Assembly (NCBI GenBank): GCA_044892525.1
Contig: CM097885.1
Coordinates: 16,184,001-16,248,000 of the forward strand
DNA length: 64,000 bases
Direction of reading: 5' to 3'
Source of the DNA: Schmidtea polychroa
Lineage: Eukaryota
The notes beneath the pieces were generated by a model. That model saw only the letters and a program-made list of their open reading frames with translations, was not told where the DNA came from and ran no database searches. Each line of letters begins with the position of its first letter. Position 1 is the first letter of the stretch. Below are positions 23,353-43,713 of the stretch, piece after piece. A program made the position numbers and the translations under genes.

Positions 23353-24904
23353 TTATAGTCTTGTTTCATAATATGAATATGATGGTGGTTGAAGGATAGT
23401 TAGTTGTCTCTCTTTTACACATATCAAGATGGTGATGGTTATGAATGTTATTGATAAGATGAGAAAACCTGTTATCAAAATGTAAATGAGATATTCACAA
23501 TAGTTGACTGTCAAGTCCGAATTTGTCATCATTAGTTTATTTAAGTTAGGTTTTGTCGTCTCTTGGGTTGGCAATTGGAAAGGTGATGTGGTTGTATATG
23601 ATTTTCGTTTCGATTCATTGATTGTCTTGACTTCCACGAAAACTGTTTGCCATCTGCCTGGTTCGGTTATCCATCGCTGATATTTAACTGTTAATTCCCA
23701 TGCCGTCTCTAAATCAGAAGTGTAAAGTGTAAAAAAATGATTACCGGCATCTAATATAGTCAGGGTTTTTTGTTTGTAGATAATAACGACTCTTTCATCA
23801 TTTCCTGATTTTCAATATATCGTTACCGGTCCATTTCCAACACTCAGGGTTATACGATTTGACTCGTCTCTGAGATAGATAGACTGGGTCTCACTCTTAA
23901 ATCGTGACCATTGGTTTCTCAATACCGTTCCATTTTCGAGGCATATGTTCTCGTAGTAGTTTGCATTAATTGAATAACTTTGATTCATTTTCAATTTTTC
24001 ATAGCGGACAAATGATTTTTGCGTGTTAAGGGTGTCGACATTTAACCCTTGAAATGTGATTCGCACTTTCACCAAGTCCACTGGCTTCCAATATATATTG
24101 ATTCCATTTATCTCTGTTTCTATTTCGATCAAGTTTCGCATTTATTTTGTGTGCACTTCTATCGGAATTTGCGTGTACCACTTTGACATGTTCTGTCTCA
24201 ACAGCCATTGGTATTTGAAATTTGGCTTTAACTTTCGTACAGCAAATATATCTTTATCATAATTCAGTTCTACCACTGGTGCCATATTGTCTAGTAAATT
24301 AATAATCTCTATTTGGTCTGCGATCTCGCATTTACAGCTCCACACAATATTTGTTAGAGTGGAATATATATGTATTTTCTCCATTCCTTGGATTTTGTTT
24401 ACCGCATATGGCAAGTCAATCCTTTTGCCGCTCGCGACTGTTACAAACATCAGCATTATTGCTACATATAATATCTTATTGATGTAGCTGACTGGTGTTG
24501 GATTTTTCGTGAATTTCTGTTTCAATTTTGTTTGACCCGTTACTTTATTCTGCTTGGATCTTAAGGGGTATCTAGATTCATCTTCCTCTGGCACTAATTT
24601 ACATCGATTTGCATGCACAATCATCGGGTTAGCCTTTTTACTCCTGAATGGTAATAACTTCAAATTGGTTTTGGTGGTGTCGCACACTTTGTAGGGTCCT
24701 TTAAATGGTCTTTGCAATTTAGGCGATAAACCTTTGAGAGGTTCCGGTCTGTTAAGATATACTAGATCTCCAATCTTTATGCCATGCGCATGTGCTTTTT
24801 TATCGTAGGTTTCTTTATATTTCTCCTGGTTGTGCTTTATTGTCAAACCGGCTTTAGTCCATACTGACTGCATTTTTTCTTGCATCATTGCTTTATAATC
24901 GGGT
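23353..24904 (-). pseudogene. integrase C-terminus (GPY/F) of element D continuing in frame into a signal peptide, ectodomain and TM segment
   Basis: IKIGDLVYL...KLQRPFKGPYKV, then ILYVAIMLMFVTVASG. ORFs 24142-24960, 23812-24141 and 23353-23637 share one frame. TM YLIYILITGFLILSITFITITILICV; tail PPSYSYYETRL. Confidence 0.75.
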
Positions 24905-24910
24905 ATCTCC

Positions 24911-25217
24911 AGTAGTGTGTATCTATCCCTAACGACCACAAGCCTCCCAACTGTTTTCATGTTTTATACCTATTTTTTCCCGTTTTATACCTATTTTTCC
25001 CTCATAAACGTAAAAAAAAACACTTAAAACCTTAAAAACCTATATCTTTTAATTTCTTTATTCCGAAGACATTTTGCTTTCAAAATAAAAACTTAAAAAA
25101 CAACAAAAATATTAAAAAAACAACACAAAATGTTAATAAAACAGGGAAAAAAAATACTGATAAAACTATGAAAAACGTTTGTCGGCTTGCGGTCGTTAGG
25201 GATAGATACACACTACT
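24911..25217. repeat. left TIR of C, itself bounded by inverted repeats
   Basis: AGTAGTGTGTATCTATCCCTAACGACC...GGTCGTTAGGGATAGATACACACTACT. Confidence 0.93.
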
Positions 25218-25220
25218 TGC

Positions 25221-25370
25221 AGGTCGCCAGTTTATCAAGTCGCCAGTTTATCAAGTCGCCAGTTTATCAAGTCGATAGTTTGTCAAGTCGATGATGCAAT
25301 CGCTGCGGTCTTGGCAAGTCGACAGCTTGGTAAGTCGACAGCTTGGCAGGTCGATAGCTTGGCAAGCTGC
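25221..25370. repeat. 16-bp tandem repeats (AAGTCGCCAGTTTATC and variants) upstream of pPolB
   Basis: About 8 degenerate units visible. Confidence 0.85.
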
Positions 25371-25526
25371 TAGAATATAAATATAAAAAAAATAAAAAAA
25401 AAATAAAAATAAAAATAAAAAAATAAAAAAAATAAAAATAAAAAAAAATAAAAATAAAAATAAAAATAAATATATAAAAATTTAAAATTTAAAAACAACG
25501 TATCCAGTAAAAAATTTTTTCTAAAA

Positions 25527-28500
25527 ATGAATTGTAATATTTGCAATAAAGTTTTTAAAAATAAAACAGGATTAATTTCTCACTATAAATCGAAAGCTCA
25601 CTTACTAAAAGAAAATAATCTTAATGACACAAATTCAAAAGTTTGTACTAAATGTAAAGGAAGATTTCTACATTCTGGATATAATAAACATTTTGAAAAT
25701 TGTATCGGGAAAAATAGAGAAATATTTACATGTCCTCATTGTAACTTTTCAACAAAACTAAATTTCTATTATTTAAGACATTTAAAAGAATGTAAAAATA
25801 AAAAACAAAGTTCTGACGTTGAAGAATGTCATTCAGAAGGAGAACCTGATCATGTTGAAAGAGAAAAATACAACTGGGATGATTTTAATCATATAGATGA
25901 ATTTCAATTAAAAATTAATGGACCTGCAACCCCTGGAGAATATATAAGGAGAAATAAAAAAAATAATAAAAATTCTTTCACTGAAGCTTTAAAAAATTAT
26001 AAACCAACAAGGTATAATGTTATAAAATATAAAATTACAATCAAAGCAAAATATTGGAGAGGACCAGAAGAAAAGACAACTCCTTTAGATGTTGAAATTG
26101 GAATACCTTTTAAATATTTATTTTCAACTAGAGGATTTAATAAAAGCATCAAAGAAATAATTCAAGCAGTAGAAGCAAAACAAGAATAGGTTGAAAATGA
26201 ATTAGGAGATTCAAACTTAGTATTCAACTCTTTCCAAACTTTAGTGATTGATTATTGGAGAGGATTACCACCTAATCCTAAATCTTATATTCAAACACCC
26301 TTTAGATCTAGGGTTGTTATAAATGTACAGAATAAGGATAACAAATGTTTCATGTGGTCAATACTTGCACATTTACATCCTCAAGAATCAAACCCTCAAA
26401 GAGTTTCAAAATACAAACAATATGAAAATGAATTAATATTTCCCAAGGGATTCACACACCCAATGAAACTAGAAGACATTCCAGAATTTGAAAAACTAAA
26501 TAATCTTAAACTTAATATTTATGAACATGTTAAAGGATGGGGACATAGAAGGAAAGATATTATTCCAATTTATATTTCTGATAGTGATAGCACGAGGGAG
26601 ATATATCTTTTAATCTTGGAAGAAGAAAATAATCAACATTTTATTTTAATAAAAAACTTTCAAGCTTTTACATCACCAGAGAATCCAACTTGTGGAGGAG
26701 GAACATGTAAAAGATGTCTTCATTATTCAACAACTAAAAACTCTATGATTAAACATACAAGAATTTGTGAAAAAGATGATCCAGCTTTAATTAGAATGCC
26801 TAATAACCCCAAGATGCATTTTAAAAACTTTTCAAATTTATTACAAACATTAGGAGTTGTCTATGGAGACTTTGAATGTATAAATCGCGAACAAGATATA
26901 ATTATACAATATTTAAAAATAATAGAAAAATATAAACTCATGGATGAATGGAAAGCCTCTAAACAGAAGGAGAAACCAACAAGGATGAAAGCCTTTCTAA
27001 GAAAAAAGAATAAACCCAATAGTATCAAACAAGCTAAACAATTACCATCTGCTTATAAACTATTATTTAAAAGTAATTATCCTGAACTCATAAAATCTAG
27101 AGAATATTCATTTAGAGGAACTTCTTCAGAAGAGGTTCTAGATCACTTTACTAAAAGTATAAATAGCTTAGAACACGAAATATTTAAAGTATAAAAACAA
27201 GCTATCCTCAAAATATTTCAGAACAACAACAGGAAGAATATGAAAACGCTTCAAATTGTTGGATGTGTAAACAACCCTTTGAGGAACTCTCTCTCTCTCT
27301 GAAAGTCATTCTGATATTAGATCTCTAACTATTGACCAAATAGAAGCAGAAGAAACAAGATTATTTCATGAAGGACAAGATAATGCAAAAGTTATAGATC
27401 ATGATCATTTAAAAAGTGAAAATAATTATCGAGGAGCAGCTCATAGAAATTGCAATCTTAATTGTCATACTCCCAAATTTGTACCTGTTATATTTCATAA
27501 TCTTTTTGGTTATGACATACATCTATTTATTAAACATTTAGCAGCAAATGCTAAAAACTCTTTCAAAGTTATCGGCTTAACAAAGGAAAAATATAAATCA
27601 GTAGAATATGGAAAATTAAAATTTATAGACTCGTTAAGCTTTCTCCAAATGTCTTTAGATGCAGTGGCAAAAACAATGAAACCAGAATATTTTAAAATCA
27701 CTCGAGAATTCTTGGAAAAAAATAATATTCCTCTAGAAGAATATCCTACATGTTTAGCAAAAGGAATATATCCATATGATTATATGAATTCATTTGAAAG
27801 ATATAATGAAACAAGTCTTCCTAACCAAGAAACATTCTTTTCACAACTTCAACAATATCATATTACAGATCAAGAATATTCTCGAGCAAATAAAATGTGG
27901 GAATTATTTGACTGTAAAACTTTAGGAGAATATACTGACATGTACCTATCCTTGGATGTTTATATTCTAGCAGATTGCTTTGAAGAATTTACAAACTCTT
28001 TTGTTCTTAAACCCTACAATTATATAACAGCACCCTCTTTAGCTTGGGATACTTTATTATATACCATTTGGACTTCAGATCTTCCAGAATCTGATAAAAT
28101 TATAGATCTTTTAACCGACCAAGATATGTTTAATCAAATTAAAGCAAACATTAGAGGAGGACTCTCTTCAGTAATGGGTAATCGAGAAATAAAAGCTAGA
28201 AATGCAATAACTACTAGTAGAATACTTTCTAAACATCCTGAGGCACATATACAACTTAATAGTGAGGAACTAAAAGAAGTATTAGAAGGAATGAAAAATC
28301 CTCTATTTATACTTTATATAGATGCAACAGCTTTATATTCAGGAATTATGACTCAATATTTACCAATGGGTGATTTCATTGAGATGGAACCAACAGACGA
28401 TCTTATAAAAGAAATACTTTCAACCCCGAAAGATTCTCCAATAGGATACTTTGTAGAATGTGACCTTGACTATCCTGATGATATAAAATCAGGAACAAGA

Positions 28501-29560
28501 CATTTCCCTTTAGCTCCTATAAGAAGAAAGATTGATATCAACGAACTTTCTGAATGGCAAATCTCACAAGATAAACCTCCAACAATGAAACTTCTTTACT
28601 GCAGTAGAACTAAAGAATTATGAGAAAACATATAATAAACCAATATTTATTGGCTTTGCAATTTTAGAACTTTCAAAATTACAAATGTATGAAACATATT
28701 ATAACATCTTACAACCTATATATGGATCGAATATAGCAATGCATGCAATGGATACAGATTCAATGTTTTTAACAATAAGAACTCACGATTTACAAAGTGA
28801 TATCTCTGAAAATCCTATACTTTCAAATTTAATAAATTCATCTGGAGAATTATTTTCGTTTAAAGATGAAAAACCTTTTACTCCTATAGAAAATGGAATA
28901 TTTATTCGTGCTAAACAATATTCATATGAAACATTTACAAATCCTAAATTTGAAGAACATACATTTATATTTAAAACCCCAGAAACAGAAGAAAGCATTA
29001 CACATAGATATCCTATATTCCCTAAAGGACATGACGGACAGGGAGAAAAACCTGTAAAGGATAACAGATGTAAAGGAATTCAGAGATGTGTAGCAAAGAA
29101 TCTTTCTCATCAAGATTATATAGATACATTGAATCCAAATCATAAAGATAAAATTGATGAAATACATCAACTTAAAAGTGAAAAGCATGATATTTACTTG
29201 ATAGAATCCCAAAAAGTATCATTATCAAATTATGATGACAAAAGATTCATACTAAGTGATTTAAAGACAACTCTTCCTATAGGAAATAATTTAATACCGA
29301 TAATAAAAAATCTTGATAGATTGAATCAGTTATATGGTACAAAGATTACTGATCTTGATATTTATAATGTTGAAATCATTTATCCTGAGAGAATTGAGAA
29401 ACCTTTATATTCTCAAGTTTTTAATCCTATATGTTTAGAACTTAAATATTTTAATACTGATCCTGAATATATAAAAGGTCTAAGTGATAAAGAATTTAAA
29501 GATCATAAAGAGGTTCTAAAAACTAATTTCGAAAAGTTAACATCAGATTCTATCAAATGA
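25527..29560 (+). pseudogene. protein-primed family B DNA polymerase (N-terminal zinc fingers, endonuclease VII-like insert), inactivated
   Basis: VINVQNKDNKCFMWSILA, ExoI YGDFEC, DHDH...RGAAHRNCNL, FHNLFGYD, KGIYPYDYM, IRGGLS, motif A YIDATALY, motif C MDTDS, KVSLSNYDDKRFI. Stops at 26187 and 27192, frameshift near the (CT)n at 27290, and a deletion near 28610 that removes motif B. Confidence 0.95.
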
Positions 29561-29634
29561 TTTTTTTCTTTTAAAAATGTCAACAATTAATTTAAGAGTG
29601 ACAACATCAACCTTTTGAAGGGCAATAAATTTTT

Positions 29635-30256
29635 TTATGTATGATTCTTTAGCCACTTCTCTCGTTTAATTTTGTTAGAATATTCATTAGTTATAACATT
29701 AGCACTTTTTAATCTATTAATATTATTTTTAATATCTTGTATTATTTGATTTGATTTCATTATTTCATCATCAGTTAAGATTCCATCTTCCAAAGCTTTT
29801 AATTGAAATAAAAATAATTTAGAGATTCTTAATTCTATTGATAAACAAACTTCACGATATAAACTTTTCTTTTTAGAAGTATAAGATAATGAAACTATTT
29901 CAGTCAAGAAACCATCAGCTACAGAAATACTTCCAAGTATTACAGGTGCTATTGTTAAAACTGGTAAAGTTATAGGTAAAATAACTGTTAATATTGCAGA
30001 TGTAAATCCTAAAGAATAAGCTATAATTTTTAAAACTGTATTCCCTTTATTCCATCTATTTTTAACCTTTTTATAATGCTTTAATAAATCTTGTAAATGT
30101 AAGGTTTCTGATTTAAATTCTTTTACTCTCATAATTTCAAGTTCTGTGGGAGCCGAGGCCTTGGAAGAATAATATCCTGATGATCTCAATTCTGGAGGGA
30201 GCTCTGGATAAATTTTTTTCTTCTCTTACTTCTTCCATCTTTTGGACTTTGTCCAT
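29635..30256 (-). CDS. Polinton membrane protein (GasderminX-like); probable frameshift in the A-run near 30215
   Basis: Hydrophobic hairpin IIAYSLGFTSAILTVILPITLPVLTIAPVILG and C-terminal KALEDGILTDDE; IYPELP and ASAP in frame upstream; ATG at 30256 is in another frame. Confidence 0.6.
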
Positions 30257-30264
30257 TTTAATAA

Positions 30265-31275
30265 TTAAAAAAATAAGACTTTATTCTTCTGAGCACCATC
30301 TGTCACCAATACTCGGATATCAAAAGAAACTCTTGTTGAGAGGATATCTTTATACAATTCTCTCAATGCTTTACGAACTTCATCAACATCAACCTTTTTT
30401 TCATAAAATATTAAACCTATATATTGTACAAGTGTGCTTTTAAAAATAATATTCTTACTTTTAACTTTATGTAGTCCATGTGAATGAGTATTAACATACC
30501 AATCTCCGTGTGGTAAATCATAACTAGTCATTATAACATCACCCTTTTCAAGCTTACTATTATAATCACATTTCACAAACCATTTCATTCTTTCATTATC
30601 ATCATCAAACAAAAAGAAATAAGGATCAATAATCTTTACAACCATAAAAACACCCCATTCTTTACTGTTTGTTGTTATTAAACTTGGTTCTATAAAATGT
30701 TTATATGTATGGGGTAATAATGTTTTATTCTGTTCTAATTCAGCAGCTCTTTTTCTAATACTATGTGTGGTGTTAATGTGTGTTCCATGAGACTCTAAAT
30801 TTGAAATTCTTTTATTAAATGATGTAATCATCTCATTTATTATATTATATATTGTATTAAATTTAGTATTCATAATTTGTTTATCTTTAGAATTTAATAT
30901 GCTAGTATTTAACTTTACAACTTGTTCAGTTAACAGACTTTGTAACTTGTCAAATTTATCATTAAATCGTTGTTCGATATTATTAAGCTTTGATTCCATT
31001 GAATCCATTTTTGTTGTTAATGAACTTTCAATTCTTGTTGTTGTTAAATCAGTATATTTTTTAACACCATCAACATATTTTTTATTAACTGCATCAGCTT
31101 CATCAGTTGGAAAAGATAATTCTTTTATCTTGTGTCCATTTAAAATTAAATCACCCTTCATTGAATCACCTCTTTCATTAATATATTTATTTTCTGTTAA
31201 AGTTAATATTTCTTCTGTATTAAACCCTGTTTTTATTGTTCCACCACCTCTATTACATGGAATATAAGAACTCAT
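30265..31275 (-). CDS. fibre/spike-like protein with coiled coil
   Basis: GDSMKGDLILNGHKIKEL..PTDEADAVNKKYVD tail-fibre-type motif, long heptad region, position next to the penton gene. Confidence 0.6.
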   Translation of the reverse strand: MSSYIPCNRGGGTIKTGFNTEEILTLTENKYINERGDSMKGDLILNGHKIKELSFPTDEADAVNKKYVDGVKKYTDLTTTRIESSLTTKMDSMESKLNNIEQRFNDKFDKLQSLLTEQVVKLNTSILNSKDKQIMNTKFNTIYNIINEMITSFNKRISNLESHGTHINTTHSIRKRAAELEQNKTLLPHTYKHFIEPSLITTNSKEWGVFMVVKIIDPYFFLFDDDNERMKWFVKCDYNSKLEKGDVIMTSYDLPHGDWYVNTHSHGLHKVKSKNIIFKSTLVQYIGLIFYEKKVDVDEVRKALRELYKDILSTRVSFDIRVLVTDGAQKNKVLFF

Positions 31276-31299
31276 TTATTAATAATTTAAAATGAATCT

Positions 31300-32058
31300 T
31301 CAAACCTGTTTCAAATGTAAATACATTGAAATCTCGTCTCCATTAAAATCAATCAATTCTCCTTCTTGATTAAGAATTTTAAAATTAATATCCATTATAT
31401 ATTTTCTACATAAAGGTAAATAATTTGGAGGATTCATTCTTTCAACTATTTTATATCCCATAGGAACTGTGTTTGAGGGAAAGGAATATAAAACATTTGT
31501 TTGTTTACCATTATTATAAGAACCTGTTATACAATCACAATGAATATTTATTGTGTTTGTATTTATTATTTTTATAATATGTTCTGATGTTATAATAGAT
31601 TCTTTCTCAACTTTAGGTATGTTATAATGACTCTGTGTAAATCCTAAAATTGTTCTAAAGAAACTATTATTTTGAAACCTAATTCCTATATTCTTTAAAG
31701 TCATTATACATTTTGAAGTTGGTAAATCCATTTTAATTTTAATGATTCCATTTGTTTTTTTAGAAAGTATATTATTTAAATCTTTTATCTCATAAGCCCC
31801 GGGTTCTATTATTATTATAATGTTATCCTCGAATTTTGGGGGGCTTACATAACTAAATGTGTTATTATCTTTAGTTATATTAAAAATAGTATTATAAGCA
31901 CAAAACCATAATAGACCTAATTCATAATTTAAATTTTGATCTAATTTTATTGAATCTTGAAAGTTTATAGTAAAGTCTGATTCTTTTGAATTTATAGATA
32001 AAGTTCTTGAATATTTATCTGACATTATGTTTACCATTTTTTTTAAATTATCTTCCAT
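31300..32058 (-). CDS. minor capsid protein (penton, single jelly roll)
   Basis: NTIFNITKDNNTF, IEPGAYEIKDLN, INIHCDCITGSY, YLPL, NQEGELIDFNGDEISMYLHLK, typical of Polinton minor capsid proteins. Confidence 0.85.
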   Translation of the reverse strand: MEDNLKKMVNIMSDKYSRTLSINSKESDFTINFQDSIKLDQNLNYELGLLWFCAYNTIFNITKDNNTFSYVSPPKFEDNIIIIIEPGAYEIKDLNNILSKKTNGIIKIKMDLPTSKCIMTLKNIGIRFQNNSFFRTILGFTQSHYNIPKVEKESIITSEHIIKIINTNTINIHCDCITGSYNNGKQTNVLYSFPSNTVPMGYKIVERMNPPNYLPLCRKYIMDINFKILNQEGELIDFNGDEISMYLHLKQV

Positions 32059-32061
32059 TTC

Positions 32062-32496
32062 TTATAGTAGAGATTTTAAATCATTATAAATTTCTTGGAT
32101 TAAGGAAGTGAAACCTTCTCCTTTGAATTTATTCAATCTATACAAAACATATAAGCTTATAATACCACATATTTTAGTATTATTAGGTTGAACTTGTAAA
32201 GAATTAAAAGTATAGTCCTTCGACAGATAGTCTTCAACTTCTTTAGTAGGTTTAATCCCAAAAGAATCAAAGTATATAGATTTATTATATATAAAAACCC
32301 AATGAGATCCTTTTTCATTTGAATTTTGATAATTTATAATGATATTCTTTGGAGTGTCTTCTTTCAGACTCGACAATTCATCATTCATTAATATTTTTAT
32401 TTTTAAATTTAAATAATCTGCATAATCTTTTAAATCAAAATTTGTTTTTGTATTTATTCCAAATGTTTTTAAAAAATCTAATATTGAAGGAGTCAT
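32062..32496 (-). CDS. adenain-like cysteine maturation protease
   Basis: GSHWV, YFDSFG, QVQPNNTKICG. Confidence 0.92.
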   Translation of the reverse strand: MTPSILDFLKTFGINTKTNFDLKDYADYLNLKIKILMNDELSSLKEDTPKNIIINYQNSNEKGSHWVFIYNKSIYFDSFGIKPTKEVEDYLSKDYTFNSLQVQPNNTKICGIISLYVLYRLNKFKGEGFTSLIQEIYNDLKSLL

Positions 32497-32518
32497 TTTA
32501 TATTTTATAACTTCGTAT

Positions 32519-33316
32519 TTATAACTTCGTATATTTATTAAATTTATCTTTTGAAATTATTCCTTGTTTTAATAATTCTTTAGAAATCTTTAAAATATCA
32601 GAATCTAAATTATTATGTCCTGCTTTTTTAGCTGCTAATAGTTTTCTTAATTCAATAAAAAGATTGATTGGGTTTATCTCCTTACCCTTTCCCTGGCCCT
32701 GACCCTGGCCCTCTCCTTCTGTGACAATATAACCCCTTTCATTTTTATTTAAATATTTCTTTAAATCTTGAATATGTTTTGCTTTAGCACTACCATGTAC
32801 TAATTCTATTAAATTTAAATATTTTTTAATTTCTAGAAGATCAACATTCTCTGAGGGATATCCACAAACTAATCCATAAAAATCATCTGTAAATTCAAAA
32901 TCTAGGTGTTTAGTATTATAAACATTTTGTGAATGAATACGTGATTTATTTTCTGAATTTAAATATAACAGAAAGTCATGTTTATTAATTGTTATTATTT
33001 GATATCCTTCAACATTAATATTAAATGTAGGTTTAATTGTTTTACTTAAACTCACATTAATTTTAGGATCAAGTATAAGAGGTTTTATATTTAAATCTTC
33101 CAACCATGGTAATTCTTTTAAATCTTGTTTACCTTCCAACTCTTTAAATTTTAAAACTTCTAACTCTTTTATGGCTTTAATTGTTGGTCCTTGTTGTTGT
33201 TGGATTACCTCATTTAATATTATAGATTCAGCGTGTTGAGTTGTATCTTTTTTATTATATTTATCTTGTTCTGATTGTAATTTTTTTAAAAGTGCTAATC
33301 TTTCTTCATATACCAT
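32519..33316 (-). CDS. conserved Polinton/adintovirus hypothetical protein
   Basis: Open 265 aa; the C-terminal LRKLLAAKKAGHN...ELLKQGII motif is recurrent in Polinton core genes. Confidence 0.65.
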   Translation of the reverse strand: MVYEERLALLKKLQSEQDKYNKKDTTQHAESIILNEVIQQQQGPTIKAIKELEVLKFKELEGKQDLKELPWLEDLNIKPLILDPKINVSLSKTIKPTFNINVEGYQIITINKHDFLLYLNSENKSRIHSQNVYNTKHLDFEFTDDFYGLVCGYPSENVDLLEIKKYLNLIELVHGSAKAKHIQDLKKYLNKNERGYIVTEGEGQGQGQGKGKEINPINLFIELRKLLAAKKAGHNNLDSDILKISKELLKQGIISKDKFNKYTKL

Positions 33317-33338
33317 TTTAATGGTATTAAAAATGGTA

Positions 33339-33854
33339 TCATTTTGGTAAAGGATCCGTTGGAAAGGGTTTCAAGTATAAACCTTTACCATTTTTAATTT
33401 TACAAAGACATCCATTTTTTAAAGATTTACATATTTTTTTTAAATTATCTTTATCTTTTGAAGATAAAGATTCAGATGTAGAAATTTGATTTTTTAAAAA
33501 ATCATTTAAACCACGACCTTTATAAGGATCAAGATAAAGACCTTTCCCTCCCTTCATTTTCTCGATTTCAGTTTGTAGTTTTTCTTTTTCTAGGTCTGTC
33601 TTTTGAGATTCTTTAGCTTTTTGAACTGTAGTTGCAATTCCTCCAGCTATTCCAGCAGCACCTGATAGTCCGGCAATGATTGCAGGTATTAAAGCAGCTA
33701 ATGGAAGAATACCTCCGGATTTGGAGGAACTCCCTATATGTTCTTTAACTTGTTCTTTTACATGTTTTCCAATAAAATATTTCTTACCATCAATTACAAC
33801 TGATTTATTTTTATTTGAATTTATTAATTCTTGTAAAGATTCTTCAGTTGTCAT
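33339..33854 (-). CDS. core protein with an adenovirus pX/mu-like segment
   Basis: SGGILPLAALIPAIIAGLSGAAGIAGGIA resembles pX RGGILPLLIPLIAAAIGAVPGIA; repeated GKGLYL motifs. Confidence 0.7.
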   Translation of the reverse strand: MTTEESLQELINSNKNKSVVIDGKKYFIGKHVKEQVKEHIGSSSKSGGILPLAALIPAIIAGLSGAAGIAGGIATTVQKAKESQKTDLEKEKLQTEIEKMKGGKGLYLDPYKGRGLNDFLKNQISTSESLSSKDKDNLKKICKSLKNGCLCKIKNGKGLYLKPFPTDPLPK

Positions 33855-33870
33855 TTTATAATAAATAAAA

Positions 33871-34650
33871 ATGGATACTTGGAAACCAATTTTAAATAGA
33901 CATAAATCTAAATTTAATAATAAAGTATTTCCTGATAATTTTAGATGCTTAATTATTGGATCTTCTGGATGTGGAAAAAATGTTCTTCTTATGAGAATGT
34001 TATTAGAAGATGGTTTTTTGGATTATAATAATTTAATCTTTTATTCTACAACCATTAACCAACCGGAATTACAACTTTTGAAATGTGGATTTGAAAATAA
34101 ATTAACTAAAAAAGCTATAATTGATATTTTTAAAAATCAACATACATATCCCGAAGAGGTTTTTCATCCTTGTGATATGGTTGATTGGTACAAGGAAAAG
34201 ATTTTAGAATCAGATATTAGTAATAAAAATGATTATATAGGGGATGGAATCCAGATCTTATTCTCTAATAAACCTGAAGATGTTTTACATTGTGATTTAC
34301 TTCCTAAAGATAAAAAGAATCTAGTTATATTTGATGATGTTGTTAACATGAAAAATCAAGAGATTCAAAAGAGTTACTTTACACGAGGTAGACATAATAA
34401 TTGTAATGTTATTTATATATCTCAAACATATTATGCTTTAGATAAAAACTCTATAAGAAATAATTCTAATTGTTTTATATTTTTTAAATTAGACAAGCGT
34501 GATAAGAATATGATTTATAATGATTTATTTTCAAATGTTGAACCTGATAAGAATATCTTTGATATGTTTGTTGATAATCATTGGAAAGAAAAATATAATT
34601 ATATTTATTTGGATAGAGAAGAAGCTGAAATATGGAAAAGTTTGTTTTAG
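33871..34650 (+). CDS. A32/FtsK-like packaging ATPase
   Basis: IIGSSGCGKN, LVIFDD, TRGRHNNCNVIYISQTYY, IRNNSN. Confidence 0.93.
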   Translation: MDTWKPILNRHKSKFNNKVFPDNFRCLIIGSSGCGKNVLLMRMLLEDGFLDYNNLIFYSTTINQPELQLLKCGFENKLTKKAIIDIFKNQHTYPEEVFHPCDMVDWYKEKILESDISNKNDYIGDGIQILFSNKPEDVLHCDLLPKDKKNLVIFDDVVNMKNQEIQKSYFTRGRHNNCNVIYISQTYYALDKNSIRNNSNCFIFFKLDKRDKNMIYNDLFSNVEPDKNIFDMFVDNHWKEKYNYIYLDREEAEIWKSLF

Positions 34651-34661
34651 GGCTTGTCGAC

Positions 34662-36056
34662 TTAAAAATCTGTTTTCTGTAGTTCATTATTATAAAATCT
34701 ACCTAATATTTTTTCATTATTTAAATCGATGATACCATATGTTATTGGAGTTGTATGATGTATTTTATTTATAATAAAAATTTCATTTGTCCATTTTGCT
34801 GTGAATCCTTTTTCAAATTTATTTTTATATTTAAATATTCTTACGCGGTCACCAATTTTAAATTTTGGTTTTATAGGGGTTGTATCAACAATAACATCAT
34901 TTTCAATATTTACCACTTTAACTGTTTCAGGATTCAAGGAAGCATTTAAAGGTGTTGATTTTATAGAACTATGTACATCATTATTATATTCATTTACAAT
35001 CTTTTGTAACAATTCATTGTTCCATTTTTGTTTTCCAATAGCAGTAAAATATTTCCACATTTTATTTTTTAATGTTCTATTTAATCTTTCAACCACAACT
35101 GCTTTTCCTTCGTTTTCTGTTGAATATAATTTAATATCATTTTCATTTAAAAACTTTGTAAAAACTTTGTTATAAAATTCTGTTCCTTTATCACACCATA
35201 AATATTTTGGAATTCTTTGATATTCTTCAAATATATTTTCAAATGCTTCTGTAATTGAATATCCTGTTTTATTTTCTAAACACCTTGCAAAAGCAAATCT
35301 TGTATATAAATCTATTACTGTTAAAATTATTTTATATTTTTCAGGGTCTGATGATTTGGGCATAAAGACTAAATCAGCAGACCATGTTTGATCTTTTTCA
35401 TGTACTTGAACTTTTAAATATTTTTTATTTTTTCTAAATTCATGGTGTAATTCGTTGGCATATTTTATTTCTGATTCTGTTGGGGTTTGTAAGGGTTTAT
35501 TCTCAAAGAGTTGATTCTCAAGGGATCTTTCAACGTCTGCTTGTTCAATAATCCTTTTATTAGCAACATCTTTTGCTTTTCTAGGAAGTCCTGCTCCTAT
35601 GAAAATCTTACCTTTCATGGCTAATTTAACTAGAGCTCTTTGAATCTTTTCCTTGCTTGATGGATTTTGGATACTATTTAAATCATGTATTAAATTCACA
35701 TCAGCAACATGTCTATCTCTAAGATCTTCTGAGTTGTATGCAATATCATGTTTTAAAGCTGCTTGATCAATTCTATTTATTGGTTCTTCTCCTTGTTTAG
35801 GATTATTATTTTCATCTAATCTAATATCTAATCTTGTTCCTGGTCCAGTATAGTTGTGATGGAATAAATGTCTTTCACCTGGATATTTTTCAGTAGTAAA
35901 GGGTTTTAATAATGTTGATGTTGTTTTTAAAGATTGAAGATCACCTCCGGCTGCTAGTTTAGATCCAAGTATATGTTTTTTAGTTTTAACATGAGAGGCT
36001 TTGTGATGTCTTGTAACTTGACAATGACAAGTTTCACATGTCCAATATTTACTCAT
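34662..36056 (-). CDS. zinc finger - parvovirus-type PLA2 - rve integrase fusion
   Basis: Likely start MSKYWTCETC; NYTGPGT, DQAALKHDIAY, RHVAD; WSADL, CDKGTEFYN, VERLNRTLK; C-terminal PKFKIGDRVRI...GRFYNNEL; one open frame. Confidence 0.92.
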   Translation of the reverse strand: MSKYWTCETCHCQVTRHHKASHVKTKKHILGSKLAAGGDLQSLKTTSTLLKPFTTEKYPGERHLFHHNYTGPGTRLDIRLDENNNPKQGEEPINRIDQAALKHDIAYNSEDLRDRHVADVNLIHDLNSIQNPSSKEKIQRALVKLAMKGKIFIGAGLPRKAKDVANKRIIEQADVERSLENQLFENKPLQTPTESEIKYANELHHEFRKNKKYLKVQVHEKDQTWSADLVFMPKSSDPEKYKIILTVIDLYTRFAFARCLENKTGYSITEAFENIFEEYQRIPKYLWCDKGTEFYNKVFTKFLNENDIKLYSTENEGKAVVVERLNRTLKNKMWKYFTAIGKQKWNNELLQKIVNEYNNDVHSSIKSTPLNASLNPETVKVVNIENDVIVDTTPIKPKFKIGDRVRIFKYKNKFEKGFTAKWTNEIFIINKIHHTTPITYGIIDLNNEKILGRFYNNELQKTDF

Positions 36057-36069
36057 TTTAAAAAGTTTT

Positions 36070-37368
36070 TTATGAAGAAGAATCACCTCGTACATTTTCA
36101 ATAATTGAAATCTTTCCACCATATAATTTCATTTCTATTTTCTTTTCTTCTAATATTAATGTATATACTTTAGCTTTAAAATTAGAATCCTTTGTTATAT
36201 GAAGTGTAACATCAACATTATTTATGGCTAGGCGATCATCTTGGTCTGAAACATTTATACAAAATATAGAATATAAATTTTTGAAATCTTCTAAACTTAA
36301 TTGCGGTTCAACTTTGAAATCATAACATGTTTCAATATAATTTAGATATGGGAATATGTTTTCATTATTTTCAATATTAAATTCCATTCTATTTATTGGA
36401 TAATAAGAACTATTTAATTGAATTTGGATTGTTTTTAAATTATCATCTCCAATCTTTTGAATAAACAAGTTGTTATTTTTTTGAAATGATGGATCTGTTT
36501 CTTTGAATCCAATCAAGATATATCTTGGTCGGTATGCTAAATTTGCTACCTTTATAGAATATGTTGAACCCTCTGTCATACTAAATTCACTACAGATTCG
36601 ATTTAAATAATTTACATTTATAGATTTGTTGGAATTTAATCTTTCAAGGAGTTTGATTTCAGAATGTGGATTTAATGTCCATTCAGGTATATGCAATTCA
36701 AGTGTTGATAATTTTAATTTAGCTTTTGTATCTGCAGCTCCATAGAACAATCTTTTATCACCTTCTAGTCTATTACAGATGAGTTCTATAAAAACATTAT
36801 GGAGCACCCGGTTATAGTTTTGAAGGAATCCGAACAAGTGTTTTAATTCAAAATAACCTTCAAATTTTTTCAACTTATAAAGTTCAACTCTTTTATAGTA
36901 AGCATAATTTATATCTAAACCATCTTTATCTAAATCCCCTTTATTAACATCAGGAATCCAACCTGTTAATTCACCATATTCGTTTTTATAATCACAACCA
37001 GTTAAAATAAAATTTAACATTGTAGAATATACTCCTGGATGCAAAACAGTTTCAATTTCTGATGATCCTAGTTTTAATCTCATGTTGGAGAATAAATTTG
37101 GAAAGAAATTATTTTCTAGGGTTATATCTTTGTTTGCTTCAATTTCTAATTCAATTTTATAATATAATTTGGCATTACAAATATCTATTGGGTTTGATGT
37201 TTGAAGAGATTGAAAAACTATATCACCCCTACGATTTAAGTTTGCAATAGATCCTGAAGTTAGCGAGATTTTTAAAATATCATTTTTCTTGATTTCATGA
37301 GTAAATTCTTTATTATAATCAAGATTTAATTTATTTTTTTCTTGAATTTTAAGATTTATATTATTCAT
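36070..37368 (-). CDS. major capsid protein (double jelly roll)
   Basis: 432 aa; FPNLFSNMRLKLGSSEIE, LKHLFGFLQNY, RPRYILIGF, LNSSYYP, YSIFCINVS; genomic context. Confidence 0.88.
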   Translation of the reverse strand: MNNINLKIQEKNKLNLDYNKEFTHEIKKNDILKISLTSGSIANLNRRGDIVFQSLQTSNPIDICNAKLYYKIELEIEANKDITLENNFFPNLFSNMRLKLGSSEIETVLHPGVYSTMLNFILTGCDYKNEYGELTGWIPDVNKGDLDKDGLDINYAYYKRVELYKLKKFEGYFELKHLFGFLQNYNRVLHNVFIELICNRLEGDKRLFYGAADTKAKLKLSTLELHIPEWTLNPHSEIKLLERLNSNKSINVNYLNRICSEFSMTEGSTYSIKVANLAYRPRYILIGFKETDPSFQKNNNLFIQKIGDDNLKTIQIQLNSSYYPINRMEFNIENNENIFPYLNYIETCYDFKVEPQLSLEDFKNLYSIFCINVSDQDDRLAINNVDVTLHITKDSNFKAKVYTLILEEKKIEMKLYGGKISIIENVRGDSSS

Positions 37369-37403
37369 TTTTATAATAAAAATTTAAAAAATGATAAAAA
37401 TCC

Positions 37404-37488
37404 GAACTCCGATAGCGAAGTGGGCTAGACTGGCACAGTGGTTCAAATGGATAGCGGTTCAAATCCTAACTACGGTTAGTTTTTTTTT
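37404..37488 (+). ncRNA. putative Pol III small RNA gene, copy 1 (tRNA-derived)
   Basis: A box TAGCGAAGTGG (37413), B box GGTTCAAATCC (37456), hairpin CTAAC-TACG-GTTAG, then T9. Confidence 0.6.
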
Positions 37489-37636
37489 AACATAAAATAA
37501 TATTAAAAATTTGAAAATAATATTGAAAATGGTGTGGGTATCTTAGATTTATATTTTATTTTATTTATTTTTATTTTATTTTATTTATTTTATTTTTTTT
37601 TTTATTAATTAAAAATTTAAAAAATGACAAAAATCC

Positions 37637-37735
37637 GAACTCCGATAGCGCAGTGGGAATAGACTGGCACAGTGGTTCAAATGCTAGCGGTTCAAATGCT
37701 AGCGGTTCAAATCACGTCTGAGGTTAGTTTTTTTT
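37637..37735 (+). ncRNA. putative Pol III small RNA gene, copy 2 (tRNA-Trp-like ends)
   Basis: A box TAGCGCAGTGG (37646), three GGTTCAAAT boxes, 3' GTTCAAATCACGTCTGAGGTTA, then T8. Confidence 0.6.
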
Positions 37736-38374
37736 CAACATAAAATAATATTAAAAATTTGAAAATAATATTGAAAATAATTTTTGAAAATAAATATTAA
37801 AAAAATATATAGTGTGGGTATCTTAGGAAATAAATCTTGTTTATTTTATTTATTTATTTATTAATTAATTAATTTTTAAACATAAATATGAAAAAAAAAA
37901 TATTGAAACGGGTGATGGTGGCGAACCGGTAATTATCGCCACCAGTCTTTCGAACACCCCCGGATCGATTCTATAATGTGCACATTTATTTCTTGGTTGT
38001 TTTCGGACCTCTTTCGGATTCGCTTTCGAATTCATTTGTACTTTCGAGCAGCACACTTAAAACGCCGATGAAATCGACTTCGTGAGCGAGAAGCGAATAA
38101 TAAAGTGTGCTGCTATTATCGAATTGATTCTGATATGTAAGTCTGGCCAGCTTGTATATTGGAAGAGATTTGATAAACGAAAGAGGTTAAAATAAAAAAA
38201 AAAAAAAATGATCCGGATCAAAAAAAACTGTTGAGAGGACAGTGAAAAAAAAAAAAAAATACCACTGTCCTCTCAGAGCAGTTTTACTATTTTCATAAAA
38301 TTTTTTATTCTTCAAGATTAAGATTTATAAAATTATAAATTAGTCAAATAGCAACTTGCTAGTTGACATCCTCA

Positions 38375-38659
38375 AGTAGTGTGTTTATATCCCTAACGAC
38401 CGCAAGCCGACAAACGTTTTTCATAGTTTTATCAGTATTTTTTTCCCCGTTTTATTAATATTTTTGTTGTTTTTTTAATATTTTTGTTGTTTTTTTTAAG
38501 TCTTTATTTTGAAACCAAAATGTCTTCAGAATAAAGAAATTAAAAGATATAGGTTTTTAGGGGTTTTAAGTGTTTTTTTTACGTTAATGGGGGAAAAATA
38601 GGTATAAAACATGAAAACAGTGGGAGGCTTGTGGTCGTCAGGGATATAAACACACTACT
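38375..38659. repeat. right TIR of C, itself bounded by inverted repeats
   Basis: AGTAGTGTGTTTATATCCCTAACGACC...GGTCGTCAGGGATATAAACACACTACT. Confidence 0.93.
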
Positions 38660-38665
38660 ATCTCC

Positions 38666-41600
38666 ATATATTGTGAAATTGGTGGTTGGAATTTGAGATC
38701 AATCGGCATATTATTTTTCCTTAACCCTGCAGAGCGCGAGCTAAAAAAGTAATGATTGTTGTAAAGACTGTTGTCTAAAATTATAATGATTTAATAATGT
38801 ATTAATGATTTTGGTCGAAATTAAAGTAAAGCTGAAATGAATCAGGTACAGAATGTTCTGAATTGATGCTACGCCTCAAAAAATGTTTTACGCAAAATAG
38901 ATCGTCTGGGTCTGTGAGACCCAACGCGCCCTCTGGAGGGTTAAATACATCAAGTAAAAAAGGGTCTCACCTGTACTTGGGTTTACTGCATTTCTGTAGG
39001 CAAATAGACACGGCTTTATGAAGTCGTTCCAATCTTTCTGTTTCCGGTTCACATATGATGAGATCATATTTATCAGTGTCCCATTAAATCGTTCCACTAA
39101 TCCATCAGTTTGTGGATGGTATGGTGACGTATTCAATTTCCAAATTCCAAATAGGTCTGTGATTGATTTGAACATCTCGCTTTGAAAGTTCTTTCCTTGA
39201 TCAGTTAACAATTTCTTTGGAGTGTCATAGCGAAATATTATGTTTTCCACAAATATTCTAGCAATCGTGTCTGCTTTTGGTTTGGAATAGCGTATGCTTC
39301 TGGCCATTTAGTAAAATAGTCGCAAAAAACAACAATGTATTTGTTTCCTTTTTGTTGTTTCCTGTAATGGTCCCAGAATATCCATTGCCGTCATCTACAT
39401 CGGTGCTGCGGGTACTGGCATCGGTTTTAATGGTACTTTAATCTTTTTACCAGTATTTCTGTGGGTGATGCATACTTTGCAACTGTTACACCAATTTTTC
39501 CTGTCTTGTTCCATTGTTGGCCAAAAGTATTTCAATTTTAATCTTGATAGCGTCTTGCGCATTGACAAATGACCTCCCAACGCTCCTTCATGATACTGCA
39601 TCAGTAAAGCGTCTCTGTGCTTGGCTGGTATAATAATTAATGCTTCCCCATTTTTCCAACATTTAAGTATTCCATTATGAATTACATATTTGCTGTTTGC
39701 ATCTGTGAGTCGTTTCCAGTCTTGTTCTTTTCTTATTTTGACCGCTTGTTCCATAAATTGTTTTAATTCACTATCGTTTTCCTGATCATTTTGAAGTTCA
39801 GACATATCATTAACAGCTTTGATTGCAGCGAATATAATGCCTTCCAATTTTTCAGGTGTCCCTTCACTATCATTTTCTGGGATTCTTGACATTGCATCTG
39901 CATTCGCGTTAGCTTTACCTGCCCGATATTTAATCTCAAAGTCGTATTCTAGCAGGGCAATCGACCATCGTATTAACTTCCTGGCTGAATCTCTGTGTTT
40001 CATTAACCACTGTAATGGATTATGATCTGTATAAACAGTTAATTTTCTGCCCAATTAATATTGTCTAAAAGTAGTAATTCCATATACTAACGCTAACGTT
40101 TCCTTTTCAATAGTTGAGTAGTTTTTCTCGTGAGGTCTCAATGATCTGCTTGCATATGCTATTACGTGGTCCTTTTCACCTTCAAAGTTTTGTCCCAACA
40201 CCGCACCCAATGCAACGTTGCTTGCATCCGTCATCAAGATAAATTGTTTTGTAAAATCTGGACATCTTAATATAGGAGTTGTTACTAATTTCTTTTTTAA
40301 TGTATTGAAAGCGTTTTGTTGCATTTGTCCCCAAATAAATTTATTGTTTTTCTTTAGTAACGTATTCAATGGTTGTGCGATATGAGAGAAATCTTTTATA
40401 AATTTTTTGTAATAGCTAGCCAAACCTAAAAATTGCCTAACCTCATCAGCATCTTTTGTTACTGGGTACTCTTCCATTTTTTTGATGTTATCTGGATTAG
40501 TTTGTAACCCTCGCCGTGATATTATATATGTCCGACATAAATCACTTCTGCTTTGCCCCATTCACATTTCGATGGTTTGATTTTTAATTTTGCACTTTTG
40601 AGCCGTTTAAATACAGTTTCTACATCTTTCAGGTGTTCTTCAAAATCATTTGAAAATATTATTATATCGTCGATATACACCAATGCATGTCGAATACCTC
40701 GTAACACATAATTCATTCCTCGTTGGAATGTAGCTGGGGCTCCTGTTAATCCAAATGGTAACACATTGAACTCATATAGTCCTTTGCCATCCGTAAACGC
40801 CGTCTTCCCTCTATCTTCCTCTTTTACTCTAAATTGATTGTACCCTTTGTTTAAATCAATAACTGTGAAATATCGTGCCTCTCCCATTTGATCGAACATT
40901 TCTTGGGATACCGGAATTGGATAAGTGTCTTTCCTCGTAACTTGATTTAGCTTCCGATAATCTACGCAAAATCGTAAGTCTCCATCTTTTTTCTTAACTA
41001 TCACTATTGATGAGGAGAATGGTGACGCACTATCTCGAATTATTCCAAATTCCTTCATTGCTGTAATCTGTCTATCACTTTCATCTTGATGAACGTAGGG
41101 GATTCTGTATGGCTTTATTTTTATTGGAGTTTCGTCTAATAACGGTATTTCATGCTTAATTACATTGGTTAAACCCAAATCATATTCGTGTTTGGCAAAG
41201 ATATCTCGGTATTTTCTCAACAGTTTTGTGAATTCCTTTTTCTGTATCTCATTTAAATCATTGCTTACCACTTCAGGCTCCTTATACACCTTGACGTTTC
41301 TTGGTATTTTACAATTTGTTTCAATAGACATTTTTGATAATTTTCCCAATTTTGTTTTTGGTGTAACTGAACCGGTTTCTTACTGCTGTTCGTTATATGG
41401 GCTGGTACTATCTGATTTTCCACTTTGACAATTTCTTCACATATCGGTAGATCATATTTTTCGACTAGCGTTTGATTTGGTTCGAATATAAAATCACCAT
41501 TATCCACACTCATGGTATTTGCACAATATACCATGTCCGATTGTGGTGGTATTGTCAATGTCTGATTCACAAACACCTCACCTGTGAATTATTTCTCCTG

Positions 41601-41925
41601 TTTCTCCTGCTATCAAATTACCTGTCTTTAAATCAAGTGAGACTCCGTCCAGCTGCTCTAATATATCCATGCCGATCAGACATCGTACTGGACTTCCTTT
41701 CATTATGAGCGCATCGTGCGCTATTATTCGATCTCCAATATGGAATATGACGTTAAGTTGTCCAATTATGTTTAACTCATTTTTTGATAATGACCTCACG
41801 ATTTCGTCGGTAGGCTTTATTCGCATTTTCTCCTTCGCGTTTAATACATTTTCCGATATTATTGTGTGACTAGATCCCGAATCGACTAAAGCTTCCACTT
41901 TATGTTTGTTCATTTGTATAAATAT
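38666..41925 (-). pseudogene. pol of element D (protease, RT, RNase H, integrase core)
   Basis: ALVDSGS; LRFCVDYRKLN, LPFGLTGAPATFQR, YIDDII; TDAS, YASRSL, NYSTIEKE, YTDH; HHCC, TDQGKNF, YHPQTDGLVERFN; several stops and frameshifts. Confidence 0.95.
38725..38940. mobile_element. piggyBac-type MITE (216 bp) inside the Gypsy integrase
   Basis: TTAA TSD on both sides, CCCT(G/C)CAGAG termini; removal restores FYLMYL-RKNNMPIDLKF. Confidence 0.9.
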
Positions 41926-43240
41926 TCAGGGTTGCTTTCCTCTTTTTGTTAATGTCATCATTGAGTAGTTGCATGGTAAGCCTAACATATTTTTTCTCTC
42001 GATCTCTGCGCTAGAAGGCTCGATTCTCTCTTCTACCATTCTTTCACATTGTAATGCGATATTTTCCACTGGTTTCATCTCTCGTAACCGATCAACTGGA
42101 TACACTGGTGCTGGTTGCATAAATGATTTTGGTATACACAATTTTGTAAACGTGTCTACGCTACTCGCATTCAACAGTGGTTCTTTTAAGATTTGATAGG
42201 TTCTTAACGCTTCTTTATTCATTCCACTTAGTTCTTGATTGTCAACATATAACGGTGCACTATCACCTTCGTTGTCATTGTCATTATTCTCGTCCCTTGA
42301 AGGGGTAGTAATAGCGTAGCTCACCTTTTTCTTCTTTAATATTCGCGCCTTGAGTATCTTCAATTCCTGATATTGATGATGAGTAATGAAGAATCTAGCC
42401 AATAATGGTATGCAACCAATTACTAGTTTCCACGACCAACCTGTGATCGCGTATAGCCTGTGTGTTGACAGGACCTGCGATATTATTACTTTGATTACAA
42501 CACATATTACATAAATTCCAATCAATCCGGCACACGCTTGTCCGATGAACATAAACTTTCGCCAGATCTTTTTCATTGTATTATACGTTGCTTTCTTGTA
42601 ATGATCTGGAGTTAACAAATACTCGTAATTTACCTTCCCACTTCCGCTTGGGAGAATTGTATCTACCATTTCCATTATTACTCTTTATTTCTTTGATAGA
42701 AATAGCAAGTTTCTGCGAGCTTCCTCAATGTCTTCGCTCGAGTAAATTCCACTTTGCGACAATCTTTCTAACGACGTAAAATTTACCAGATATTGTAATT
42801 CTGTCAATTCTAAGTTTTCCGGTGTCTTTACTTCTCGATGATCTGGTAATGAGATCCAAGATTCTGGTGTTAGTCTGTATAATGGTGCCAACAATCTATT
42901 ACACTGTAATACTTTCGGTTTCACGTCCTCTTCCAGTAAGATTCGTGTTACAGGCTCCATAAATCGCAACTTTCCATTTAAATTTACTGGTAACTCGTTG
43001 GTACATTGGTCGTACTTTGTCAGTTTGACTGGTACCGCTTTACATTTATAGCTATATAGTGCTTCACCGAAAATTCTGGCAAACACCCCATTTTCTGTAA
43101 TTAACATTGGTGCTACTAAGTTAGGATTGGTTATAGCCATTGCCATCCGATTTCGGAGTATTTCTTTGTTGAGATTGCAATCATTTATAATAACTTCTCG
43201 GTACACATTTTCAACGGTATTTTGACCAAAGTGAAATGGC
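41926..43240 (-). pseudogene. C-terminal half of a chuvirus-like (class III-type) envelope glycoprotein, in frame between gag and protease
   Basis: GEALYSYKC..VPV, CTNELPV, FMEPVTRIL, GIYSSEDIE..R..LLF, and WRKFMFIGQACAGLIGIYVI TM; same frame as gag and protease. Confidence 0.7.
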
Positions 43241-43713
43241 TTGGCCATATCTGCTTGGACTGGTTTGACTTCAAAGGCTTTATCTGCTAAATTGGTCAGA
43301 TGATAAGCAAACTCACTGACCGATTCATCTGGACCTTGAACTCGATTATAAAACTTCTGTCGCATGATTCTTTTGATATCTCCACCAACCAGTTTCAGTG
43401 CCATTGCATCCTTCAATTTGGTCCAATCATTGCTGACATTCCGTTTGTCGACTTGCTGTCAGGCTTCTCTTGCCGCACCCTTCAGATAGAGTGGGAATCT
43501 CTGAACCATAATGGCTTGTGTCCATCCGTATGCTGAAGCATACATATAATAATCTCCCATGAAATCTGCAAATTCAACAAGGTCTCCTCCATATTGATTG
43601 ACGGGTAATTTCTGACAACTTGCGAAATCAATCATCTCTCTATTGAGAGGCATAACAGCATTATCATTTGCCATTTGGACTTGTTTCTGACTTCTGAGGT
43701 TGTATCGGTTCAC
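43241..43713 (-). pseudogene. gag N-terminal (capsid) region of element D
   Basis: RYNLRS, PLYLKGAAREA*, RVQGPDESVSEFAYHLTNLADKAF (retrotransposon gag motif). Confidence 0.8.

Follow-up and report, generated by a model that had tools for sequence, protein, structure and literature searches.

tRNA-like units at the ends of Polintons in Schmidtea polychroa look like selected Pol III promoter cassettes rather than VA-like RNA genes

One locus of Schmidtea polychroa bears on how integrated Polintons stay active and on whether they have non-coding counter-defences, as their adenovirus relatives do. A preliminary description of this locus proposed that two tandem, tRNA-Trp-derived Pol III genes beside the capsid gene of an adintovirus might be analogues of adenoviral VA RNAs. 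We analysed the window, meaning the whole 64,000-nucleotide stretch at positions 16,184,001 to 16,248,000 of contig CM097885.1, together with related copies elsewhere in this AT-rich, 781-Mb animal genome. The units, here called unit C, look like selected Pol III promoter cassettes and not like VA-like RNAs, because their boxes and spacing are kept while the remaining sequence is as variable as synonymous sites and shows no more folding than shuffles do. The relevant features, in window positions, are:

24911..38659, no strand assigned: Polinton/Maverick (adintovirus-like) element of 13.75 kb, between two copies of a 6-bp duplication, ATCTCC
36070..37368, minus strand: major capsid protein gene (double jelly roll; PF21738, E 2e-27)
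37404..37488, plus strand: unit C copy 1, predicted RNA about 80 nt; A box 37413-37423, A-like motif 37431, inner B box 37440, B box 37456-37465, T9 37480-37488
37489..37546, plus strand, with a second copy at 37736-37826: AT-rich repeat behind each unit, nearly invariant among copies
37637..37735, plus strand: unit C copy 2; A box 37646-37656, B boxes 37674, 37689 and 37704, T8 37728-37735
37905..38190, plus strand: cassette F, a candidate structured Pol III RNA; imperfect A box 37919, B box 37962, T4 38000, folded domain 38006-38188 (183 nt), then an A-rich run
38228..38281, no strand assigned: hairpin H, with an A-rich loop; folding z -9.95
38375..38659, no strand assigned: terminal cassette, with a mate at 24911 to about 25219 and inverted AGTAGTG/CACTACT ends

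The element was inserted into a Ty3/gypsy retrotransposon. Terminal inverted repeats and a 6-bp target duplication, by which Polintons and adintoviruses are recognised, are both present, 6 bp being the length of Polinton target duplications. Domain matches within the element include an rve integrase (PF00665), a packaging ATPase (A32; PF04665) and a PLA2-like domain, with the integrase and the PLA2-like domain sharing one ORF (34662-36122). The protein-primed family B polymerase, which is split over three ORFs in the window copy, gave no Pfam or PDB match by sequence; it was assigned by an Atlas feature match of 0.98 to clusters in which 56% of members carry PF03175. An adenain-like protease was likewise assigned by a feature match of 0.97, with PF00770 on 11-62% of cluster members. 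This gene set agrees with the adintovirus gene list as given in excerpts of PMC8502044. The interrupted retrotransposon (38888-43404 plus 23812-24960) carries a Monjiviricetes-type fusion glycoprotein gene, in pieces. Judging from the terminal cassettes, it is as if Polinton ends were exchangeable mini-elements or fold-back termini. Their inner sequence varies by subfamily (the window; L041, L065, L112, L127), and just inside the left one, where other subfamilies have a Pol III module, lie short tandem repeats containing CAAGTCG (25218-25375).

The duplicated unit of the preliminary description is real: two tandem copies, 233-248 bp apart, lie upstream of the capsid gene and divergent from it, starting 36 bp from the capsid ATG at 37368, with the first A box 45 bp from the start of the gene. 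The A box of each copy (37413 and 37646) and the long T runs (T9 in copy 1, T8 in copy 2) are also as described there. All five occurrences of the B-box-like motif GGTTCAAAT in the window fall inside the two units (two and three, respectively), with 1.48 expected for the whole window, and a 24-mer common to both copies has two exact occurrences and appeared in none of 100 shuffles. Copy 1, in which the A-to-B spacing is 44, is the sole match in the window to a combined A-B-T4 pattern that was absent from 2000 shuffles of the 1-kb end; this pattern misses copy 2 because of its spacing and cassette F because of its A box. Other details held for the window and less well for its relatives. The count of two or three B boxes was accurate, but the third is private to the window copy (1/29 sister copies), so the typical unit C has 76 nt and two B boxes. 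Also private to it are a 15-nt duplication at the B box of copy 2 (37689) and, in the A box of copy 1, a change from C to A (1/29 sister copies). Unit lengths range from 76 to 91 nt. The proposed second A box exists as the motif TGGCACAGTGG at 37431 and 37665, but fits TRGCNNAGTGG in just 27/56 distinct units versus 53/56 for the first. Similarly, copy 1 does end in a 5-bp stem with a UACG loop, but this hairpin is not conserved: among 65 units, 9 have the UACG loop, a different loop tops the same stem in 13, and no such hairpin is present in 43.

The units are part of the virus-like element and not a dispersed host SINE, an alternative that the preliminary description had itself raised, with all 50 sampled unit matches lying in Polinton ends. 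These 50 are samples out of at least 1515 exact genomic matches to a 23-base core of unit C (the start of the capsid gene has 894): 30 tandem-pair loci, every one of which runs on into the capsid gene, and 20 core matches taken from the start of sequence C1 of the genome, often found at both ends of a Polinton and inside a repeat of about 1 kb. To avoid selecting on the unit itself, we also anchored on the capsid gene, which gave 69 loci (30 by protein and 39 by the first 28 bases of the gene, including the window copy and one duplicated pair). A unit-C segment is present in 60 of these 69 loci, in outward orientation, and inward-facing units were found in none of them. The module is, however, neither essential nor a strict two-sided bracket, since it is missing beside the capsid gene in 4/30 protein-anchored copies (capsids 91-92% identical; three read by eye) and since the window's subfamily has no unit at its other end (8/8 ends, from 12 stretches of which 4 did not reach that end). 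The tandem duplication of unit C is a subfamily trait. That it compensates for the missing unit at the other end is compatible with the end survey, and this idea was set aside.

Among viral contigs, no relative was detected by capsid protein or by unit pattern, and metagenomes yielded one distant Polinton locus, without an element end, in which the 5 kb upstream of the capsid gene hold other genes and no unit. Searches of the host genome with proteins of two relatives returned this family alone. Unit C is short, with one B box and a spacing of 29, in a diverged Polinton within the genome (L053 and L066-L067; 36-55% identity over pieces of the polymerase), and L129 and L137 have forms that are similarly short. 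Two opposed copies of a far more distant polymerase (24-29% identical; L062-L063, C1:78.5-89.7 kb) were also seen, pointing to another Polinton group.

Conservation was examined in 67 distinct unit-C segments, picked by requiring a T run and one TTCAAAT, with a variant counted as recurrent when present in three rows or more. Recurrent variants occur in 1/21 box columns (the R of TRGC) versus 23/46 other unit columns (Fisher p 0.0003, a value that overstates independence because the copies are related and recombining). For G/C columns alone the counts are 0/11 in the boxes and 14/23 elsewhere; as a yardstick, 9/12 four-fold G/C sites in the capsid gene are variable. The A-to-B spacing is 43-45 in 51/56 distinct units, compared with 44 in the tRNA-Trp and initiator tRNA-Met of the host. 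With an A box, a B box at tRNA spacing and a T-run terminator, the units have the layout of a type 2 Pol III gene. Conservation extends to the inner B box (1/9 columns vary), which is too near the A box for a tRNA layout; the second A-like motif varies in 5/9 columns. Conservation is not confined to Pol III signals, since the AT-rich flank behind the unit is equally invariant (0/25 columns vary).

Folding gives a different picture from that expected of VA-like RNAs. Compared with shuffles, the units have a mean z of -0.31, with 2/56 below -2; the window copies score 0.23 and -1.49, and the typical copy 2 scores 0.22. Complementarity between leader and trailer exceeds that of letter shuffles (0/500). 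Selection on an acceptor-like terminal stem was considered and rejected, there being no leader-trailer covariation and no advantage of native over re-dealt pairs (p 0.58). Taken together with the conserved boxes, these comparisons suggest that selection on unit C appears to act on DNA signals and not on RNA shape. Rfam returned no family match over 36800-39000 at E up to 10, a span that includes the units and cassette F.

We compared the units with five host tRNA isotypes (Trp, Cys, Lys, Arg and initiator Met). Trp is the best match for 35/56 unit variants, most strongly for the ACGTC trailer type to which the window belongs (z 3.1; other types 0.9-2.5). The typical copy 2 reaches z 3.3 against tRNA-Trp, yet host isotypes reach z 2-7 among themselves in most pairs. 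The G form of the unit-C A box is identical to that of initiator Met. The tRNA-Trp sequence quoted in the preliminary description, GTTCAAATC, does not hold for this host, whose tRNA-Trp instead reads GTTCGAATC. No cloverleaf with a CCA anticodon is present in unit C (ARAGORN reported 0 tRNA genes there, and Rfam gave no tRNA match). From these similarities a tRNA origin of unit C is likely, and a Trp origin is plausible. A Cys origin, considered because of a GACTG(G)CA motif, was rejected, with Cys best for 2/56 variants and a negative mean z. Host tRNA genes also occur in very long single-isotype tandem arrays (C4:55.02 Mb, C1:269.25 Mb, C1:79.33 Mb and C4:76.66 Mb), and genome-wide pattern matches number 835 for Trp, 1016 for Cys and 1253 for initiator Met.

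Further out lies cassette F, a third outward cassette that the preliminary description missed. Its A box has a C where tRNA genes carry a purine, and its B box, GGATCGATTC, is of the GGATCGA type found in host initiator tRNA-Met, at an A-to-B spacing of 44. Across 45 distinct copies the spacing is 44-45 in every one, and the free position of the B box varies while the next C is kept in all 45. The region 37900-38200 folds with a z of -4.17, and the domain has a closing stem and two hairpins, one long and with a variable insert, the other of 25 pairs; the 5′ head showed no pairing signal. When the structure derived from the window copy alone was applied to the other copies, recurrent variants kept pairing in 9 cases and broke it in 2, compared with 10 and 16 for rare variants (p 0.03). 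Support for this pairing is moderate, because one-sided G-U swaps dominate and 2/61 pairs are altered on both sides. Pair rules do not discriminate between the strands (9 kept and 2 broken on either), although their energies differ (-63.7 versus -44.6 kcal/mol). F has 2927 exact matches and is present in 35/39 loci anchored on the capsid start. In a sample of 20 of these matches, chosen for having no listed neighbour, 19 adjoin Polinton genes and the remaining one is a bare end fragment. Compared with a TMER, cassette F has the boxed head at constant spacing and the 25-pair hairpin, but an invariant T4 lies between the head and the folded domain. This T4 may terminate transcription, since T4 runs also follow host Trp and Cys genes. 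Even so, F is a better candidate than unit C for a VA- or TMER-like RNA. In hairpin H, which lies beyond F and was likewise missed by the preliminary description, one stem pair is A-T in 32, G-C in 17 and otherwise in 2 of 51 copies.

Many sister copies carry additional tRNA-like units, A and B, that differ from C and have the same orientation. Unit B has 1263 exact matches, keeps a T arm, is closest to host tRNA-Cys (Cys best for 6/7) and scored as a tRNA in one of two scanned copies (32.4 bits, cut-off 29). A tRNA-Asp motif, looked for because of a possible Asp origin of unit A, matched nothing in the genome. In many sister copies, though not in the window copy, a small ORF lies between the capsid gene and unit C (L065 at about 2450-2680, minus strand; L041, L115, L121); it faces outward, and its product is basic/acidic and helical-looking.

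What, then, might such units do? It is known that tRNA genes and B boxes serve as chromatin barriers. We propose, with a probability of roughly 45%, that the degenerate tRNA-like cassettes work in cis by giving TFIIIC/TFIIIB and Pol III a place to dock, any RNA of about 80 nt being an unstructured by-product. This reading corresponds to the second option of the preliminary description, TFIIIC sites. Host TFIIIC would bind the stacked B boxes, two per unit with one to three units per end, and TFIIIB would sit just upstream, which in the window's subfamily is over the divergent capsid start 45 bp away. Pol III would then transcribe outward and stop at the T run, leaving short RNAs as by-products. 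The bound complex may hold the end open once a copy has integrated and buffer it against silencing, the open end spanning the divergent capsid promoter on one side and on the other cassette F, which would be an RNA whose structure matters. A docking role is suggested because only the A box, the B boxes, their spacing and the T run are conserved within the units; the shared orientation of units A and B and the lack of inward units agree with it. Less easily accommodated is that the A box, the spacing and the long terminator are kept at all, which suggests real transcription, because bare TFIIIC sites need none. Leader-trailer complementarity, the invariant flank and the absence of the module from some copies also weigh against it.

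Other explanations have to be set against docking in cis. Sequence and fold would matter little if the units were genes for abundant short Pol III RNAs whose effect in trans came from their mass and their generic Pol III ends, for instance when La, tRNA-processing or small-RNA proteins become loaded with them. Such a role would suit the complete set of promoter and terminator signals, the T8-9 run being stronger than the T4 that follows host Trp and Cys genes, as well as the number of exact core copies, and in excerpts of PMC8223928 the tRNA-like part of the MHV68 TMERs alone rescues pathogenesis. However, neither structure nor sequence is kept outside the boxes, the redundant inner B box suits DNA binding better than RNA, and some copies lack the units, so we regard action in trans as unlikely. 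Less likely again is a passive origin, in which the terminal repeat once captured tRNA or SINE pieces and has carried their relics along, with boxes that seem conserved through homogenisation of the ends. Homogenisation would not spare the boxes alone when neighbouring columns vary at about the synonymous rate, nor does it fit the B box of F, where the free position varies next to a constant C. Capture would nevertheless explain why unit number and type differ among copies and why the distant metagenome Polinton has none along the 5 kb upstream of the capsid gene, and Helenus is proposed to have arisen when a SINE inserted into a terminal repeat (excerpts of PMC10886601). Capture is also favoured by a tandem array outside the module (L180, 1294-1583 and 2556-2845), in which sequence that is 81% alike to unit B and its flanks has decayed boxes.

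The original proposal of VA-RNA analogues, in which the two units would be folded decoys that block a dsRNA sensor or Dicer, now seems very improbable. PKR is generally not known from invertebrates, and the tandem arrangement is a subfamily trait. The units are half the length of a VA RNA, form no stable stems, vary outside the boxes and match no VA family in Rfam. There are points of resemblance: a tandem pair with type 2 promoters lies beside the late genes of an adenovirus-related element, and VA RNA I and II, possibly tRNA-derived themselves, have internal A/B boxes and T4 terminators and lie in tandem near late genes (excerpts of PMC7589676). A VA RNA, however, has about 160 nt with terminal, central and apical stems, and here F alone has a comparable folded body.

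Other known systems show similar partial likenesses. The MHV68 TMERs are clustered tRNA-like Pol III units in a DNA virus (excerpts of PMC8223928), and F resembles them in placing a head before a long hairpin; but units C have no cloverleaf or hairpins before the terminator and do not preserve the second A-like motif as an A box, and in F the head is not a cloverleaf and the T4 precedes the folded domain. TRIMp3 elements (Helenus, Cassandra and Ajax) carry a tRNA- or 5S-derived Pol III promoter, which is not a functional tRNA, in a mobile element's terminal repeat (PMC10886601, in excerpt). That promoter makes the transposition RNA of an LTR element, whereas Polintons are DNA-based and their units face outward and end in terminators. 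Polinton-like and MELD viruses have tRNA-related sequence within Polinton-related genomes (PMC12220804 and PMC8502044, both in excerpt), but as scanner-detectable tRNA genes read as translation aids, while units C are invisible to ARAGORN and Rfam. The units are members of none of these classes (VA RNAs, TMERs, TRIMp3 or tRNA genes of polinton-like viruses). The mechanism that we propose for them is the B-box-dependent cis role of barriers formed by tRNA genes or extra TFIIIC sites and of B2/Alu SINE boundaries, with the difference that the candidate barrier would be carried by a mobile element for its own protection. A keyword search of open main texts returned, among its best matches, no description of Pol III cassettes in animal Polintons.

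A more ambitious possibility, which we hold to be doubtful, is that animal Polintons and adintoviruses share a terminal Pol III module in which captured tRNA promoters hold the end open while a structured F RNA, of about 280 nt or confined to the 183-nt domain, acts like VA RNAs or TMERs against small-RNA silencing; such a module would help to explain the very high copy number. With well over a thousand ends in the family, the conserved cassettes and the candidate folded RNA, which keep a fixed position, offer a direct handle both on a barrier that a mobile element may carry for itself and on a VA/TMER-like RNA. The case made here is one of comparative sequence analysis, and it would also bear on the origin of VA-type genes from tRNA genes.
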